Assembly: GCA_964527765.1 (NCBI GenBank)
Contig: CAZGQR010000005.1
Location: 2,402 to 66,401 of the forward strand
DNA from: an uncultured Planctomycetia bacterium
GTDB lineage: Bacteria; Omnitrophota; Gorgyraeia; Tantalellales; Tantalellaceae
Length of the DNA: 64,000 nucleotides
Reading direction: 5' to 3'
Shown here: positions 4,318-40,890 of the stretch, one piece after another
Layout: the number at the start of each line of letters is the position of its first letter
Position numbering within the stretch: the first letter of the stretch is position 1
Translations under genes and position numbers: made by a program
The notes under the pieces: generated by a model
Databases searched by the model: none
What the model was told of the DNA's origin: nothing
The model's input: only the letters and a program-made list of their open reading frames with translations

Positions 4318-7300
4318 ATGTTCGGTCTTGTGGCGAAACTGTTGAGGGATATTTTCGGGACGCAGAACGAGCGCGAGCTTGCCAAGCTTGCGCCGCTGGT
4401 CCAGAAAATAAACGCTCTTGAAGCGGAGTTTTCTTCGTTTTCGGATGAAGAGCTGAAGGAAAGGGCGGCCCAGGTCAGGAAGAATCTTATCCTCGCGCGC
4501 AAACAAAATAAACCAGAGGAAGAGAAGATCCGCGAACTCGTAGCTTCGTCTACTTCGGACCAGGAGAGGAACAAGCATAAAAGACGCCTGAAAGAAGCAA
4601 AAAACCGGATACTTGACGACAGTATCCCGGAAGTCTTTGCCGCGGTCAGGGAAGCGGCGAAGAGGACGATAGGCCTCAGACATTTCGATGTCCAGCTTCT
4701 CGGCGGTATCGTGCTGCATCAGGGCAGGATCGCGGAGATGGCGACAGGCGAAGGTAAAACGCTCGTTGCTACTCTGCCGGTCTGCCTGAACGCTTTTGCC
4801 GGAGAAAAAGTTCACGTGGTGACGGTAAATGATTACCTCGCAAAAAGGGACCGCGAGTGGATGGGCCCGGTCTATACCTTTCTGGGCCTTTCGGTGGGAG
4901 TCATACAGAATGACATGAGGTCCGAGGAAAGGAAAAATGTTTACGGATGCGATGTCGTTTACGGGACCAACAACGAATTCGGCTTCGATTACCTGAGAGA
5001 TAACATGGTGGCGGATGAGTCCGATGCGGTTCAGGGACACCTCGGGTTTGCCATAGTTGACGAAGTCGACAGTATCCTCGTCGACGAGGCAAGGACGCCA
5101 TTGATAATATCCGGTCCGGTGGAGGATACGAACGAGGCGTATAATCAGATGAGGCCCGTGGTGCAGGAGATCGTCGGCGCGCAGAGAAGGCTCACGGGCG
5201 ATTATATCTCCCGGTTCCGGATCAACCTGCGCGAGGGCAATGAAGAAGAGGCGGGGCGCCTGCTTTATCTTATTCACAAGGCCGATCCGAAGAACCGGGA
5301 ATTTCTGGACATCGTGCTTAAGGACGGGCGCGCGAAATCCCTGTTTGATAAAACACAGGGCCTTCTGGACGGCAAGGTCATGGAGAAGGAACGCAATGAA
5401 CTTCTTGAAGAGCTTTTCTACGTTTTTGACGAAAAATCGCGCGAGGCGACTTTCAGCGCGAAGGGTCAGAAGATGATGCAGGAGAAGTTCAGCATAGAGT
5501 TCATGCTGGAAGATATCGAGGCCAGACTGGCGGAACTGGCGGATGAGGATATACCGGCGGAAGAAAAGATGGCGCGCGAGACGGAACTGGTATCGTCATA
5601 TGCGGACCAGCAAAGGAAGGTAGAGAGCATCAAGCAGCTGCTGAAGGCCTATATATTGTTCCAGAAGGACGTTGATTACGTTATCAAGGATAACAAGATA
5701 GTCATAGTCGATTCCTTTACCGGAAGAATGATGCCGGGACGCCGCTTTTCGGACGGTATCCACGAGGCGATCGAGGCAAAGGAGCGGGTCGAGGTGCAGA
5801 AAGAGAGCCAGACACTCGCGACCGTTACTCTCCAGAATTACTTTCGCATGTACGATAAACTGGCCGGCATGACGGGTACCGCGAAGACCGAGGAAACGGA
5901 GTTCGAGAATATCTACCTGCTGCCCGTCATACAGGTGCCCACCAACCGCCCGTTGATACGGCTAAGCATGGCGGACCGCATATACAAAACAGAAAAAGAG
6001 AAGTTCGACGCGGTCATCGGAGAGATCGCCCAGTGGCACGAGAAGGGAAGGCCCATGCTGGTCGGGACGGTGTCTATAGAAAAATCCGAACAGCTGAGCC
6101 GATTGCTGAACGCGCGCGGGATCAAACACAATGTCCTGAACGCCAAGTACCACGAGAAAGAGGCGCATATAGTCGCGCAGGCGGGCCGGTACGGGGCGGT
6201 TACCATAGCCACCAACATGGCGGGCCGCGGGACGGACATACTTCTCGGGGGCAATCCTGAATATCTTGCGAATGATGCGGTGGAAAAACTGGAGATAGAT
6301 GATCCTGAGGAAAGAAAGAGAACATTTGAAAAATATCTTGGGGAGTTCAAAACCCAGACGCATCAGGAGCGGGGAAAGGTCCTTGAAGCCGGCGGCTTAC
6401 ACGTGATAGGCACGGAAAGACATGAAGCCCGGAGGATAGATAACCAGCTCCGCGGACGGTCCGGCAGGCAGGGCGATCCCGGTTCCAGCAGATTTTATCT
6501 TTCACTGGAGGACGACCTTATGAGGATCTTCGGGTCCGACAGGATAAAAGGCATCATGGACCGCCTGGGCATGGAGGAAGGGGAGGTCATCGAGAACCCG
6601 CTTGTTACGCGCGCCGTGATGACAGCGCAGCGCAGGGTAGAATCCCAGAACTTCGAGATCAGAAAACACCTTCTTAAGTATGACAATGTCATGAACCAGC
6701 AGAGGGAGGTCGTATATAAGAGGCGACGCATGATACTTACGGGCAAGGACCTGAAGGAAGAGTTCTTTGAGTGTCTTTCCGTCGGCCTGGAATCGCTTCT
6801 CGAGAACTGGGAAGAGGCGCCCGAAGCAGATCTTCTCGCGAAAAACGTCATGTATCGTTACGCGGTAAACGTCAAACCCGATTCGCTCGAAGGCAGGTCG
6901 GCGCAGGACGTCATGGAACTTATAAAGGAGATCGCGGAAAAGGGTTATTCCGCAAGAGAGAAATTTCTCGGAGAGGAGAGGATGCGGGAGCTCGAAAAAA
7001 TGGTTATGCTTTCCGCGATAGATTCGAATTGGAAAGAATATCTGAGGGAGATCGACGATCTCAGAGAAGGGATATCCTGGCGGGCGTACGCACAGAAGGA
7101 TCCTCTGATCGAATTTCAGCACGAGGCGTTCCGGATGTTCGCGGATCTTATGATAAAAGTGGATGAACAAACGGCCGAACGGATCATGAAGATCTCCGCC
7201 ATGGAGGAGCAATACAAAAGACAAGTTTTCCGGCCCGAGAAAGAGACTTTCCAGCACAGGGGATATTCCGCCATCGGAACACCCTCGGCCGGTCAGGACG

Positions 7301-35234: not shown

Positions 35235-36833
35235 ATGGGTAAATTTTATATCACCACACCCATATATTACGTGAACGCGAGCCCGCACATCGGCCACGCT
35301 TATACGCAGGTCGCCGTTGACGCCATCGCCAGGTATCACAAAATGCTGGGCGAGGATGTTTTTTTCCTTACCGGCACCGATGAGCACGGCGAAAAGATAG
35401 AGGAAGCATGCGTGAAGGCCGGATTCGGCGAGGGGAAGGAAAAAGAGTTTGTTGATACGATAGTCCCCAGGTTCAAGGAAGCCTGGAAAGTGCTGGACAT
35501 AGATTACGACGAATTCATCCGCACGACCGACGAAGAGCACGAAAAGGTCGTCCAGGAATTCCTGAGCAGGATGCATGAAAAAGGCGATATCTATCAGGGG
35601 GAATACGACGGGTGGTTCTGCACCCCGTGCGAGACCTTCTGGACCGATACCCAGGCGGAGGGCGGGATATGCCCCGAGTGCAAGCGCCCCGTGGACAGGA
35701 TAAAGGAAAAGAACTATTTCTTCAGGATGAAGGAGCGCAAGAAATGGCTCATAGACTACATCGATAAGCATCCGGAATTCATAATGCCGGAGTTCAGAAA
35801 GAACGAGGTCCTCGGGTTCCTGAGGGAAGAGCTGAACGATCTCTGCATATCGCGCCCAAAGGAAAGGATGGCCTGGGGGATCGAGATGCCCTTTGATAAG
35901 GACTACGTTGTCTATGTCTGGTTCGAGGCTCTTATAAACTACATTTCAGGGCCCAAGAAACACAAGAGATTCGACAAGTTATGGCCCGCCGATTTCCACG
36001 TGATCGCCAAGGATATACTGAGACATCACGCGGTCTACTGGCCGATAATGCTTAAGAGCATGGACATGCCCCTGCCCAGGACCATCTTTGCCCACGGCTG
36101 GTGGAAGATGGGCCAGGAGAAGATGTCCAAGTCCAAAGGCAATATCGTCGACCCCATAGAACTGAAAGAGAGATACGGGGTCGACCCCATCCGCTATTTT
36201 CTATTGAAAGCCGTGATCTTCGGGAGTGACGGAGTTTTCAGCGAAGATGCCTTTGTCACCATGTATAACAGTGATCTGGCCAACGACCTGGGGAACCTCT
36301 TGAACAGGACGCTTACCATGGTTGAGAAATATTTTGACGGCGTATCTCCTTCGGCTTCCCCGGAGAAAGCGGCTGAAGAACAAAGAACACGGAGCATTAA
36401 TAACATCATTGTTAACGTTGCGAATCTGCTTCCGAAGGTAAAAGAAGAGTACATATGCAACCCGAAGCTTGAATTAAAAGAGGCATTGGAGCATATCATG
36501 ATCGTCGTTGGGAAAGCCAATAAATATATCGAGGAGTCCGCCCCCTGGGAATACTCCAAGAAAGGGGATATGGAATCCATAAAACTTATAATTGCGGATC
36601 TTTTGGAAGTGTTAAGGACCGTTTCCATAGCGCTTTTTCCGTTCATACCGCGGGCAGCCCGCAAGATGTGGGAACAGCTCGGGCTGGGGGATATCGACAA
36701 AGAGCTCGCGAAGGATGAACTTAGAAAAGAGCTGACCGAGTTTACCGAGGAAGAATTTGTGGACTGGAAGAGAAGATTTCCCGCCGGCACGAAGGTCGCC
36801 AAGGGCGAACCGCTGTTCCCGCGGATCCAGTAA
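35235..36833 (+). CDS. metG: methionine--tRNA ligase (short form)
   Basis: HIGH (PHIGHAYT) and KMSKS motifs, CxxC Zn knuckles (CTPCETF, CPECKRP). Confidence 0.9.
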   Translation: MGKFYITTPIYYVNASPHIGHAYTQVAVDAIARYHKMLGEDVFFLTGTDEHGEKIEEACVKAGFGEGKEKEFVDTIVPRFKEAWKVLDIDYDEFIRTTDEEHEKVVQEFLSRMHEKGDIYQGEYDGWFCTPCETFWTDTQAEGGICPECKRPVDRIKEKNYFFRMKERKKWLIDYIDKHPEFIMPEFRKNEVLGFLREELNDLCISRPKERMAWGIEMPFDKDYVVYVWFEALINYISGPKKHKRFDKLWPADFHVIAKDILRHHAVYWPIMLKSMDMPLPRTIFAHGWWKMGQEKMSKSKGNIVDPIELKERYGVDPIRYFLLKAVIFGSDGVFSEDAFVTMYNSDLANDLGNLLNRTLTMVEKYFDGVSPSASPEKAAEEQRTRSINNIIVNVANLLPKVKEEYICNPKLELKEALEHIMIVVGKANKYIEESAPWEYSKKGDMESIKLIIADLLEVLRTVSIALFPFIPRAARKMWEQLGLGDIDKELAKDELRKELTEFTEEEFVDWKRRFPAGTKVAKGEPLFPRIQ

Positions 36834-37036: not shown

Positions 37037-37354
37037 ATGACAAACAAAGAGATTTGCCGCGGTAAAATAAAAAACGCTTCCGGTCTTACAAGATTCCAGA
37101 AAAAGGTGCTGCTCGCGGTGCTGGAGATCCCCCGGGGCGAGGTGCGTTCTTATGCCTGGGTGGCCGATAAGACCGGTTCCCCCGGGGCCTCGCGGGCCGT
37201 AGGGCAGGCTCTGGCGGCTAATCCTTATGCGCCCGAAGTGCCCTGTCACAGGGTCATCTCTTCCGACGGATCGATCGGAGGATACTCAAAAGGACCGGCC
37301 AGGAAGCGGCGATTGCTCCAAAAAGAAGGAGTTGTGATAAGAAAGTGCGACTGA
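37037..37354 (+). CDS. ogt: methylated-DNA--protein-cysteine methyltransferase, DNA-binding domain only (short Ogt/MGMT)
   Basis: 106 aa with the PCHRV active-site motif and a winged-helix region. The start is chosen downstream of the palindrome. Confidence 0.65.
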   Translation: MTNKEICRGKIKNASGLTRFQKKVLLAVLEIPRGEVRSYAWVADKTGSPGASRAVGQALAANPYAPEVPCHRVISSDGSIGGYSKGPARKRRLLQKEGVVIRKCD

Positions 37355-38721
37355 TAGATACCCATTGCCATCTGGACTTTCCGGATTATAAGGATGACCT
37401 GGGCGATGTCCTGAAAAGGGCCGAGGGTGCCGGAGTGGTGCGGATGATCTCCCCCGGTACGGATGTCGCCAGCAGCGAAAAAGCCGCCGGGATAGCCGCA
37501 AAATACAGTGCCGTGTACGCCGCGGTCGGCGCGCATCCGCACGGTGCGGACAAGGCCGGTGAGCCGGACCTCGCGCGCCTTCGGGGCATGGCCGTCTCGA
37601 ATGATAAGATCGTGGCCATAGGCGAGGTGGGACTGGATTATTATAAGAAATATTCGAAGGTCGAGAACCAGAGATCGCTTTTCCGAAGCTGCCTGGGGAT
37701 CGCAAAAGAGCTTGACCTGCCGGTGATACTGCATAACCGCGACGCCGGGGAGGACCTGCTGCGTATTCTCGAGGAAACAGCGCCCGTTCCGGCAAAAGGC
37801 GCCGTTCATTGCTTTTCGGCGGATGCTGCGGTTCTCCGCGAGGTTTTGACGCTCGGGCTGCATGTTTCGTTCGCGGGCAACATAACGTTCGAGAAGGCCG
37901 CGGGCCTTCGTGACGTGGTGAAGCGGGTGCCGCCGGACCGGCTGCTTCTGGAGACGGACTCGCCGTATATCACGCCGGTGCCGTTCAGGGGTCAAAGGAA
38001 CGAGCCGGCATATGTCCGTTATCTTCTGGATATCTATGCGGCCGCGTACGGACTGTCCCCGGAGGACATAGCAAGGATCACCACGCATAACGCGAACAGG
38101 CTTTTTTGCCTGGGGATAGAAGAAAAGGGCGCGGTAGCGTATCCTATAAGGGATTCGCTGTATCTCAATATCACCAACAGGTGCACGAACAGGTGCACGT
38201 TCTGCACCCGTCAATATTCCAATTACGTAAAAGGACACAACCTTAAACTGGATGCTGAACCCACTGCGCGGGAGATAATAGATGCCATGGGGGATATATC
38301 CGCCTATAAGGAAGTGGTGTTTTGCGGTTACGGTGAACCGACGCTGCGCCTGGGGGCCGTTAAAAAGGTCGCCGCTTACGTGAAACAAAAGGGCGGTAAA
38401 GTAAGGTTGACGACCAACGGGGAAGGTGATCTTATCAACGGACGGTCCATAGCCGCCGAACTGAAGGGTCTCGTTGACAGGGTCTCGATCAGCCTGAACG
38501 CGCCGGACGCGAAGACCTATGACCGTCTCTGCCGGCCGGTTTTCGGAGGGGATGCGTATGGCGCGGTACTGGACTTTGCCCGCGAGTGCGGGGATAAAGG
38601 CATGGAAATGGAAATAACGTGCCTGGATATCGTCGGGGAGGAGGGTGTCCGGGGGTGCCGCCGGATAGCGGAAAAAGCGGGCGCAAAATTCCGGTTAAGG
38701 CACATGGATGTGGTCGGATAA
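37345..38721 (+). CDS. TatD-family metal-dependent hydrolase fused to a C-terminal radical SAM domain
   Basis: N-terminal ~255 aa: TatD motifs (IDTHCHLDF, GEVGLDYY, LETDSPY). C-terminal ~200 aa: CTNRCTFC (C-x3-C-x2-C) radical SAM core plus GYGEPTL glycine-rich SAM-binding motif. Confidence 0.75.
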   Translation: MRLIDTHCHLDFPDYKDDLGDVLKRAEGAGVVRMISPGTDVASSEKAAGIAAKYSAVYAAVGAHPHGADKAGEPDLARLRGMAVSNDKIVAIGEVGLDYYKKYSKVENQRSLFRSCLGIAKELDLPVILHNRDAGEDLLRILEETAPVPAKGAVHCFSADAAVLREVLTLGLHVSFAGNITFEKAAGLRDVVKRVPPDRLLLETDSPYITPVPFRGQRNEPAYVRYLLDIYAAAYGLSPEDIARITTHNANRLFCLGIEEKGAVAYPIRDSLYLNITNRCTNRCTFCTRQYSNYVKGHNLKLDAEPTAREIIDAMGDISAYKEVVFCGYGEPTLRLGAVKKVAAYVKQKGGKVRLTTNGEGDLINGRSIAAELKGLVDRVSISLNAPDAKTYDRLCRPVFGGDAYGAVLDFARECGDKGMEMEITCLDIVGEEGVRGCRRIAEKAGAKFRLRHMDVVG

Positions 38722-39840: not shown

Positions 39841-40890
39841 ATGGCTTACGAGACGATACGGTGGAGAAATGACAGAGTAGAGCTTATCGACCAGAGGCTT
39901 CTTCCGGGGAAAGTGCGTTACGTGCCGTGCACGACGGACAGGGACATACACGCGGCGATAAAGACGATGAAGATAAGAGGCGCCCCGGCGATAGGGATAG
40001 CCGCCGCTTACGGGGCGTATCTGGGCGTGCGCAGGAGCCGGGCAAAGGATTTCGTGGGATTCAAAAAAGAACTGGACAGGGCAATGAAATACCTGGCCGG
40101 GTCACGGCCGACGGCAAGGAACCTTTTTTGGGCGCTGGAAGAAGTAGATGCCCTCGTAAAAAATAACAGGAACAGGCCTGTCGGGGAACTGAAACGCATG
40201 ATCCTCGGCAAGGCCCGCGCGATACTTGAGGAAGACAAGAAAATATGCCGTTCGATAGGAAATCGCGGAGGGAGGCTGATCAAAAAGGGTTCCGGCGTCC
40301 TGACGCATTGCAACGCGGGGGGCCTGGCGACCGGCGGGTACGGCACGGCTCTTGGGGTGATCTTCTCCGCCGGAAGGAAGATCAGAATGGTATACGTCGA
40401 TGAAACGCGCCCCGTTCTGCAGGGAGCGCGCCTGACGGTGTGGGAACTCATGCAAAGGAAGGTCCCCGCGACGCTTATATGCGATAACATGGCAGCTTCG
40501 CTTATGGCTAAAAGAGAGATCGATGCGGTCATAGTGGGCGCCGACCGGATCGCGGCTAACGGGGACACCGCCAACAAGATCGGGACGTATAACGTCGCTA
40601 TCCTGGCCGATCACCATAATATCCCGTTTTATGTCGCGGCGCCGGTCTCGACGTTCGATCTTTCGATCCCGCGGGGCGAGAGCATTCCGATAGAAGAGCG
40701 CTCGCATGAAGAGGTAAAAAAGATCGGCGGCAGGTATATAACCCCGAGGAACGTGAAAGTGAAGAATCCCGCTTTTGACGTCACGCCCGCCGGGCTGATC
40801 ACGGCGATCATCACGGAGCGCGGGATTATAAGGAAACCGAATAAGCAGAAGATCGCGAGAAAAGTGAAGGGTGGGGCAGGTCTGCTGTAG
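39841..40890 (+). CDS. mtnA: S-methyl-5-thioribose-1-phosphate isomerase (eIF-2B alpha/beta/delta-like family)
   Basis: MKIRGAPAIGIAAAYG, TGADRIAANGDTANKIGTY. The last 7 codons are contributed by hairpin repeat copy A. Confidence 0.75.
   Translation: MAYETIRWRNDRVELIDQRLLPGKVRYVPCTTDRDIHAAIKTMKIRGAPAIGIAAAYGAYLGVRRSRAKDFVGFKKELDRAMKYLAGSRPTARNLFWALEEVDALVKNNRNRPVGELKRMILGKARAILEEDKKICRSIGNRGGRLIKKGSGVLTHCNAGGLATGGYGTALGVIFSAGRKIRMVYVDETRPVLQGARLTVWELMQRKVPATLICDNMAASLMAKREIDAVIVGADRIAANGDTANKIGTYNVAILADHHNIPFYVAAPVSTFDLSIPRGESIPIEERSHEEVKKIGGRYITPRNVKVKNPAFDVTPAGLITAIITERGIIRKPNKQKIARKVKGGAGLL

Follow-up and report, generated by a model that had tools for sequence, protein, structure and literature searches.

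The 64-kb window analysed here, the whole stretch of 64,000 nucleotides (nt) taken from contig CAZGQR010000005.1 of an uncultured Omnitrophota bacterium, carries on its plus strand a gene that encodes a TatD-family hydrolase and a radical S-adenosylmethionine (SAM) domain in one 458-residue polypeptide. The genes around it lie on the same strand in the order tmk-holB-PSP1(yaaT)-metG-(MGMT-like)-tatD::radical SAM-CPBP protease-mtnA-thiL-tsaE-tsaB, and the fusion gene occupies the housekeeping tatD position (holB-yaaT-metG-tatD). A sequence-only reading of this DNA had placed the gene at the syntenic metG-tatD position, and the holB-PSP1-metG-tatD order does hold, except that an MGMT-like open reading frame (ORF) stands between metG and the fusion.

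The same reading had proposed that a complete TatD is joined in frame to a radical SAM domain, and both parts of that proposal stand. The ORF contains no internal stop, the Joint Genome Institute (JGI) gene call gives the same 458-residue product, and an identical protein is present on seven contigs, the two places shown being two metagenome samples (3300018080 and 3300017963). Pfam and NCBIfam each recognize both halves. TatD_DNase (PF01026) spans residues 4-254 (E 2e-82; 276.8 bits against a cut-off of 27) and Radical_SAM (PF04055) spans residues 274-425 (E 1e-18; 68.2 bits against 29.5). The N-terminal half also passes TIGR00010, the YchF/TatD family DNA exonuclease model, with 266.5 bits against 206, and residues 264-454 pass TIGR04038 with 239 bits against 129.7, aligning to model positions 2-191 of 192. 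TIGR04038 is the "TatD family nuclease-associated radical SAM protein" (InterPro IPR023821, alias tatD_link_rSAM); the sequence-only reading had mentioned a radical SAM family usually encoded beside tatD, and TIGR04038 is a family named for that association. The full-length AlphaFold (AF2) model is confident (predicted local distance difference test, pLDDT, 93.9; predicted template-modelling score, pTM, 0.82), with an ordered linker at pLDDT of about 89-91, and the high pTM of this model would imply a defined domain arrangement. That the gene encodes a genuine single polypeptide, a YcfH/YabD-type TatD followed by a TIGR04038 radical SAM domain after a short linker of fixed length, is to us at the least very nearly certain. 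The features are collected in Table 1.

Table 1. Features of the fusion gene and its upstream surroundings (positions of the window).
Feature	Position	Strand	Remarks
metG	35235-36833	+	532 aa; conserved upstream neighbour
MGMT-like gene	37037-37354	+	PF01035 only; PCHRV active-site motif; 10-nt overlap with the start of the fusion gene
AAGGAG ribosome-binding site	37326-37331	+	13 nt upstream of the GTG start; direct sequence reading
TatD + radical SAM fusion gene	37345-38721	+	458 aa; GTG start, TAA stop; 100% identical to P0001
TatD domain	37354-38106	+	aa 4-254; HxH Group II / YcfH type
Short ordered linker	38107-38133	+	aa 255-263, about 10 aa; length kept across phyla
TIGR04038 minimal radical SAM domain	38134-38706	+	aa 264-454
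Perfect 12-nt x2 direct repeat AACAGGTGCACG	38176-38199	+	encodes NRCT-NRCT
CX3CX2C [4Fe-4S] cluster motif CTNRCTFC	38182-38205	+	aa 280-287; C280, C284, C287
FCGYGEP, GGE-type SAM-binding motif	38320-38340	+	aa 326-332
Extra cysteines C327, C396, C415, C426, C438	38323-38325, 38530-38532, 38587-38589, 38620-38622, 38656-38658		

In the TatD half, the metal-site residues (H7, H9, E94, H130, H155 and D205) are invariant in 52 fused homologues, the DTHCHL motif is present, and the N-terminal 258 residues align over their full length to YcfH-type structures (E 1e-50 to 1e-53), the closest being those of Staphylococcus aureus (6l25/2gzx), Escherichia coli YcfH (1yix) and Thermotoga maritima (1j6o). 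A match to PF04909 places it in the amidohydrolase superfamily. The HxH motif defines Group II TatDs (PMC10085689). In vitro, E. coli YcfH acts as a 3'-exonuclease on single-stranded DNA and as an apurinic/apyrimidinic (AP) endonuclease on double-stranded DNA, and a strain mutated in tatD, yjjV and ycfH at once shows H2O2 sensitivity (PMC10085689; PMC4176340). With the characterized YcfH/YabD-type TatDs (TIGR00010) the fusion's TatD shares the HxH motif, the metal ligands and the holB/metG neighbourhood; the difference is that those enzymes are single-domain proteins of about 260 residues, without a radical SAM partner. QatD, the TatD nuclease of the Qat anti-phage system, was considered and rejected, the scores being low (NF041926, 85.9 bits against 230; PADLOC QatD match, 77.5 bits) and the neighbours housekeeping genes.

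The radical SAM half is a minimal, one-cluster core of about 195 residues in which the cluster and SAM-binding motifs are intact; the sequence-only reading had named CTNRCTFC and GYGEPTL, and CTNRCTFC and FCGYGEP are indeed there. Among 40 diverse free-standing and fused sequences, the invariant residues include Y273, N275, C280, C284, F286, C287, G328, G330, E331, T357, G359, S383 and R452, F286 being the aromatic residue before the third cluster cysteine, and all but one of 372 homologues have the CX3CX2C motif at its canonical spacing. This half is basic (isoelectric point, pI, 8.75), with several arginine and lysine residues conserved family-wide. Modelled alone by AlphaFold (pLDDT 95, pTM 0.90), it adopts a partial (beta/alpha) TIM-barrel fold that Foldseek matches with a probability of 1.00 to the cores of NifB, pyruvate formate-lyase (PFL)-activating enzyme and viperin; together with TYW1, BlsE and LipA, these matches span query-normalized TM-scores (TMq) of about 0.6-0.73 at 11-20% identity. 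PFL-activating enzyme, comparable in size, ranks second among the structural matches.

Likeness to these enzymes does not extend beyond the core. PFL-activating enzyme (3c8f), NifB and viperin share the partial TIM barrel with the fusion's radical SAM half (TMq 0.70-0.73), and PFL-activating enzyme also shares its unusually small size, whereas identity is 14-20%, there is no family-level sequence match, and the fusion has no auxiliary-cluster domain. By sequence, no close solved relative was found (the best is CteB, E 0.003), and Foldseek returned generic cores only. Neither domain models nor residue conservation revealed a second conserved cysteine cluster or a SPASM or twitch extension, and we rejected a SPASM/twitch maturase on the grounds that the C-terminal auxiliary Fe-S domain is missing and matches to such families cover the core only. 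Prokaryotic viperin (pVip) was likewise dismissed, NF038283 scoring 32.6 bits against 180 and covering only the N-terminal core of a model of about 280 residues. A role in defence, as either QatD or pVip, was discarded in view of weak, superfamily-level matches and the housekeeping context. The sister family TIGR04100 (rSAM_pair_X) consists of small radical SAM proteins of similar length that align end to end with the fusion's domain, but membership was ruled out by a score of 212 bits against a cut-off of 262.

Cysteines outside the cluster motif were also considered. The residue that immediately precedes the GGE motif, C327, has 97% conservation across the family, and C327, C396, C415, C426 and C438 are 85-100% conserved in the fused Omnitrophota homologues without being invariant. 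An auxiliary Fe-S cluster built from these residues was rejected, as predicted secondary structure scatters them between strand ends and outer helices. C327 or C426 could instead be active-site thiols, for example hydrogen-atom donors.

The fusion is widespread. A search with the whole protein gave more than 7,800 matches, and the best 120 clusters, at 51-82% identity, are nearly all 455-468 residues long, with a few shorter or longer, and all contain both Pfam domains; their named members are Candidatus Omnitrophota, including Candidatus Omnitrophus magneticus. For the radical SAM domain alone, HMMER, run exhaustively, gave 273 clusters formed at 50% identity with E<1e-30, and 863 with E<1e-10. 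The best 150 of these comprise 77 fused proteins of 430 residues or longer (73 with an N-terminal DxHxH), 44 free-standing proteins of 185-220 residues, 27 of intermediate length, many of which are N-terminally truncated fragments of fused genes, and two shorter than 185 residues. When each GTDB species was represented by one genome, at least 598 genomes proved to have the domain.

We classed the 80 best loci in named genomes by tblastn and reading frame, and 69 of them, from more than 10 phyla, are fused. They come from Omnitrophota, Planctomycetota (including Candidatus Loosdrechtia), Nitrospirota/Thermodesulfovibrionia, Nitrospinota and Desulfuromonadales/Geobacter/Trichlorobacter thiogenes, as well as from Acidobacteriota, Zixibacteria, Firestonebacteria, Edwardsbacteria, Verrucomicrobiota and one Bacteroidetes metagenome-assembled genome (MAG). 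In seven loci, six Clostridia-type and one from Elusimicrobia, tatD is followed, after a gap of 18-60 nt, by a separate radical SAM gene, and four have no immediately adjacent tatD. Of four further free-standing genes that were looked up, three come right after tatD, and the tatD of the fourth is 3.2 kb upstream. The non-fused radical SAM gene is thus immediately downstream of tatD in 10 of 15 cases, and the survey of relatives for separate neighbours, suggested along with the original reading, finds the pair typically fused or adjacent. In 167 of 180 fused proteins, cross-phylum representatives included, 69-72 residues separate the TatD ETDSP motif from the YxNxT motif of the radical SAM half. 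Cultured carriers of both arrangements exist: Trichlorobacter thiogenes has the fused form and Caldicoprobacter algeriensis the split one.

Could the fusion be an artefact, a sequencing or assembly frameshift that joined two adjacent genes? Split tatD and radical SAM genes, with gaps of 18-79 nt, do occur in some lineages, including one Omnitrophota MAG. Against an artefact stand the identical protein on seven contigs, with two samples behind the two places shown, the near-uniform length and common architecture of the best 120 clusters, the predominance of the fused form among the best loci, and a linker whose length is kept and which is confidently modelled. With seven contigs, fusion across phyla and a fixed linker length, we consider an artefact ruled out, its probability being negligible. 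A frameshift and a failure of the C-terminal half in radical SAM hidden Markov models (HMMs) had been the two grounds for doubt named at the outset; the cross-phylum fusion on the one side, and scores above the cut-offs on the other, remove both.

In a neighbour-joining tree of the radical SAM domains, a rough tree without support values, most split Firmicutes forms group together and one split pair falls within the fused forms, a hint that fusion or fission happened more than once. The split Omnitrophota case, locus L084 (3233-4603, Omnitrophica MAG GCA_026387155.1), encodes a 236-residue TatD and a 200-residue radical SAM protein separated by 58 nt, and may be a real fission or an assembly frameshift. 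There a DUF362/ferredoxin-like gene takes the place of the CPBP protease, followed by mtnA-thiL-tsaE-tsaB as usual. A free-standing TIGR04038-like gene (P0233, 53% identity) was also seen at 6001-6594 of locus L003, a 4.9-Mb chromosome (GCA_942493335.1), flanked by genes for a PAS histidine kinase and a rhodanese. Because this gene is unlinked to tatD, the TatD-radical SAM association is not absolute.

When neighbouring ORFs were clustered over 83 loci, only upstream genes recurred, namely metG (at least 33 loci), PSP1 (21) and holB (12); no recurring neighbour was found downstream, nor any third conserved partner gene. Lacking such a partner, the TatD-radical SAM pair is self-contained. The MGMT-like gene upstream in the window retains the active-site cysteine and has no N-terminal domain. 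Its 10-nt overlap with the fusion gene suggests translational coupling. Only the closest relatives (L001, L002, L004, L005 and L007, the last from Candidatus Omnitrophus magneticus) have it at this place after metG, and it is a lineage-specific neighbour outside the conserved module. No terminator-like site on the plus strand flanks the fusion gene, and no tRNA genes or Rfam families at the gathering threshold were found in the window.

The architecture itself is already known, abundant and deposited, and curated family names record the association. The C-terminal 191 residues of the fusion share with TIGR04038/IPR023821 the motifs TNRCxNxCxFC and VFCGYGEP as well as the tatD association, and do not differ from the family in substance. 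Since the NCBIfam model is typed subfamily_domain, TIGR04038 is expected inside longer proteins. IPR023821 has been cited as the "TatD-associated rSAM family" (bioRxiv 10.1101/2024.11.19.624229), while source databases name the fused proteins by their TatD half only, as 'TatD family hydrolase' or 'YchF/TatD family DNA exonuclease'. The gene in the window is therefore one more Omnitrophota member of a known, uncharacterized family and gives no new lead. The argument that a fusion supports a direct functional partnership is sound as interpretation, but this gene adds no fresh clue to it, being an instance of the family's commonest architecture. What the survey adds is that fusion is the majority architecture over more than 10 phyla, that no third partner gene accompanies it and that cultured carriers are available.

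Both catalytic centres are conserved, and the domains are coupled covalently or in an operon in nearly all carriers, with a fixed linker. A mostly obligate fusion with a linker of fixed length is strong genomic evidence that both activities serve one substrate, and we infer that they do. More tentatively, we propose a model, possible but given less than an even chance, where the domains work one after the other on a single nucleic-acid substrate, damaged DNA being the likeliest. First, the radical SAM domain would reductively cleave SAM to generate a 5'-deoxyadenosyl radical, which would abstract hydrogen from a sugar or base lesion intractable to hydrolytic enzymes; the TatD domain would then cut or trim the phosphodiester backbone or the 3' end. 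We favour a nucleic acid because of the nuclease activities of YcfH, the very small radical SAM core, comparable to that of PFL-activating enzyme, the basic composition of this half and the lack of any other partner gene. Very small radical SAM cores are, in our view, typical of enzymes acting on macromolecules, as PFL-activating enzyme does. The reading as damaged DNA draws support from the O6-alkylguanine-transferase-like (MGMT-like) gene that overlaps the start of the fusion in the closest Omnitrophota.

Several points weigh against this model. Within the searchable literature, we found no experiment or paper on the function of the TIGR04038/IPR023821 family, whether under family names or accessions. 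The structural matches, at 11-20% identity, are to a generic radical SAM core and carry no clue to the substrate. The metG, PSP1 and holB neighbours fit translation or replication housekeeping as much as repair, and the MGMT-like neighbour occurs in just a few close relatives. Basic charge is a weak argument, and for the TatD family itself the physiological substrate is not settled.

The substrate might instead be RNA. On this account, the radical SAM domain would modify or repair a nucleotide of tRNA or rRNA while TatD trims 3' ends or deacylates aminoacyl-tRNA, in a process linked to translation. Many radical SAM enzymes modify tRNA and rRNA, and the cyanobacterial TatD homologue Dtd3 deacylates D-aminoacyl-tRNA. 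The tRNA-modifying radical SAM enzyme TYW1 is among the structural matches, although it matches no better than NifB, PFL-activating enzyme or viperin. The presence of metG immediately upstream in at least 33 of the 83 loci, and of PSP1 in 21, would fit, but metG-tatD synteny is also found in bacteria without the radical SAM partner and is therefore uninformative about that domain. E. coli TatD also degrades RNA (PMC10085689), and human TATDN2 is an RNA 3' exonuclease (PMC10711561). Pfam finds no tRNA-binding domain (TRAM, THUMP or PUA) in the fusion protein, and we consider an RNA substrate unlikely.

Distinctly unlikely, in our judgement, is an arrangement in which TatD itself is the target, the radical SAM domain serving as an activase or maturase that adds a post-translational modification to it, or as a [4Fe-4S]- or SAM-sensing switch that gates the nuclease according to redox or SAM status. 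The rank and size of PFL-activating enzyme among the structural matches speak for it, and the fixed short linker and high pTM of the model would imply intimate, fixed contact between the domains. The authors of PMC10085689 consider that TatD nuclease activities probably need regulation. Yet YcfH-type TatDs are active without a radical SAM partner in most bacteria, some radical SAM genes are unlinked to tatD, and a non-exhaustive look found no invariant glycine or target motif specific to radical SAM-linked TatDs. The GGE motif and core residues, moreover, are fully kept across sequences about 40% identical, a pattern of conservation that would favour turnover catalysis over sensing. Still less probable, and to us very unlikely, is a role in small-molecule or nucleotide metabolism, with viperin-like radical chemistry on a free nucleotide or metabolite and TatD hydrolysing the product or by-product. 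Weak viperin-family sequence matches (NF038283, E 4e-8; pVip, E 3e-10), viperin structural matches at a TMq of about 0.7 and the amidohydrolase membership of TatD (PF04909) are compatible with such a role. However, the viperin score of 32.6 against 180 is no better than those of MoaA, AhbD and NirJ and so reflects superfamily-level similarity, and the characterized YcfH-type enzymes are nucleases. Omnitrophota also have, two genes downstream, an mtnA gene (IF-2B family, methylthioribose/5-deoxyribose salvage type) that would suit metabolite chemistry, but this synteny is confined to Omnitrophota-type loci (seven loci and L084).

Returning to sequential action on damaged DNA, it is tempting to speculate that the TatD-radical SAM fusion represents a class of enzymes, not described before, that repair or process nucleic acids by joining 5'-deoxyadenosyl-radical chemistry with a hydrolytic nuclease. 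Such an enzyme might reverse or excise lesions refractory to base excision repair, for example a sugar-base cross-link or a blocked 3' end. We hold this to be a doubtful proposition, and the evidence does not specifically support it beyond the TatD-radical SAM association. If true, radical SAM DNA repair would have a second paradigm besides spore photoproduct lyase, and the housekeeping YcfH/YabD TatD would acquire a physiological role. The model we favour has its conceptual precedent in spore photoproduct lyase, whose radical SAM chemistry works directly on a DNA lesion. At about 340 residues this lyase is larger than the fusion's radical SAM half and is not known to be linked to TatD, and it is not among the sequence or structure matches listed for this half.

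In Omnitrophota-type loci the radical SAM gene is followed, one to two genes further downstream, by an mtnA-type gene of the IF-2B isomerase family (methylthioribose-1-phosphate or 5-deoxyribose-1-phosphate type), at 39841-40890 (+) in the window and at 5706-6758 in L084. The mtnA-type gene could serve to salvage the radical SAM by-product 5'-deoxyadenosine, or the synteny could be coincidental.

The 12-nt repeat within the cluster motif had been singled out in the sequence-only reading. It is real and perfect in its two copies, located 2 nt upstream of the position given there (38178-38201), and Tandem Repeats Finder (TRF) reports 2.3 copies at 38172-38199, but it has no special meaning. The family consensus peptide is (I/L/V)TNRC(T/S)N(R/x)Cx(F)C, also occurring as TNRCTNRCxFC, and in relatives with the same NRCT-NRCT peptide the two halves differ by 0-4 nt and use differing codons. 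C280 and C284, and with them the canonical CX3CX2C spacing, depend on the presence of both copies, so the repeat is not a product of insertion or slippage; with a consensus peptide at near-universal canonical spacing, recent slippage, duplication or a phase-variable element was rejected. The perfect repeat arises incidentally from local codon choice within a conserved motif that is itself repetitive. On the minus strand, an ORF of 380 aa (window 37246-38388) spans most of the fusion gene; nothing independent supports it, and most probably it is a shadow ORF cast by the coding strand.

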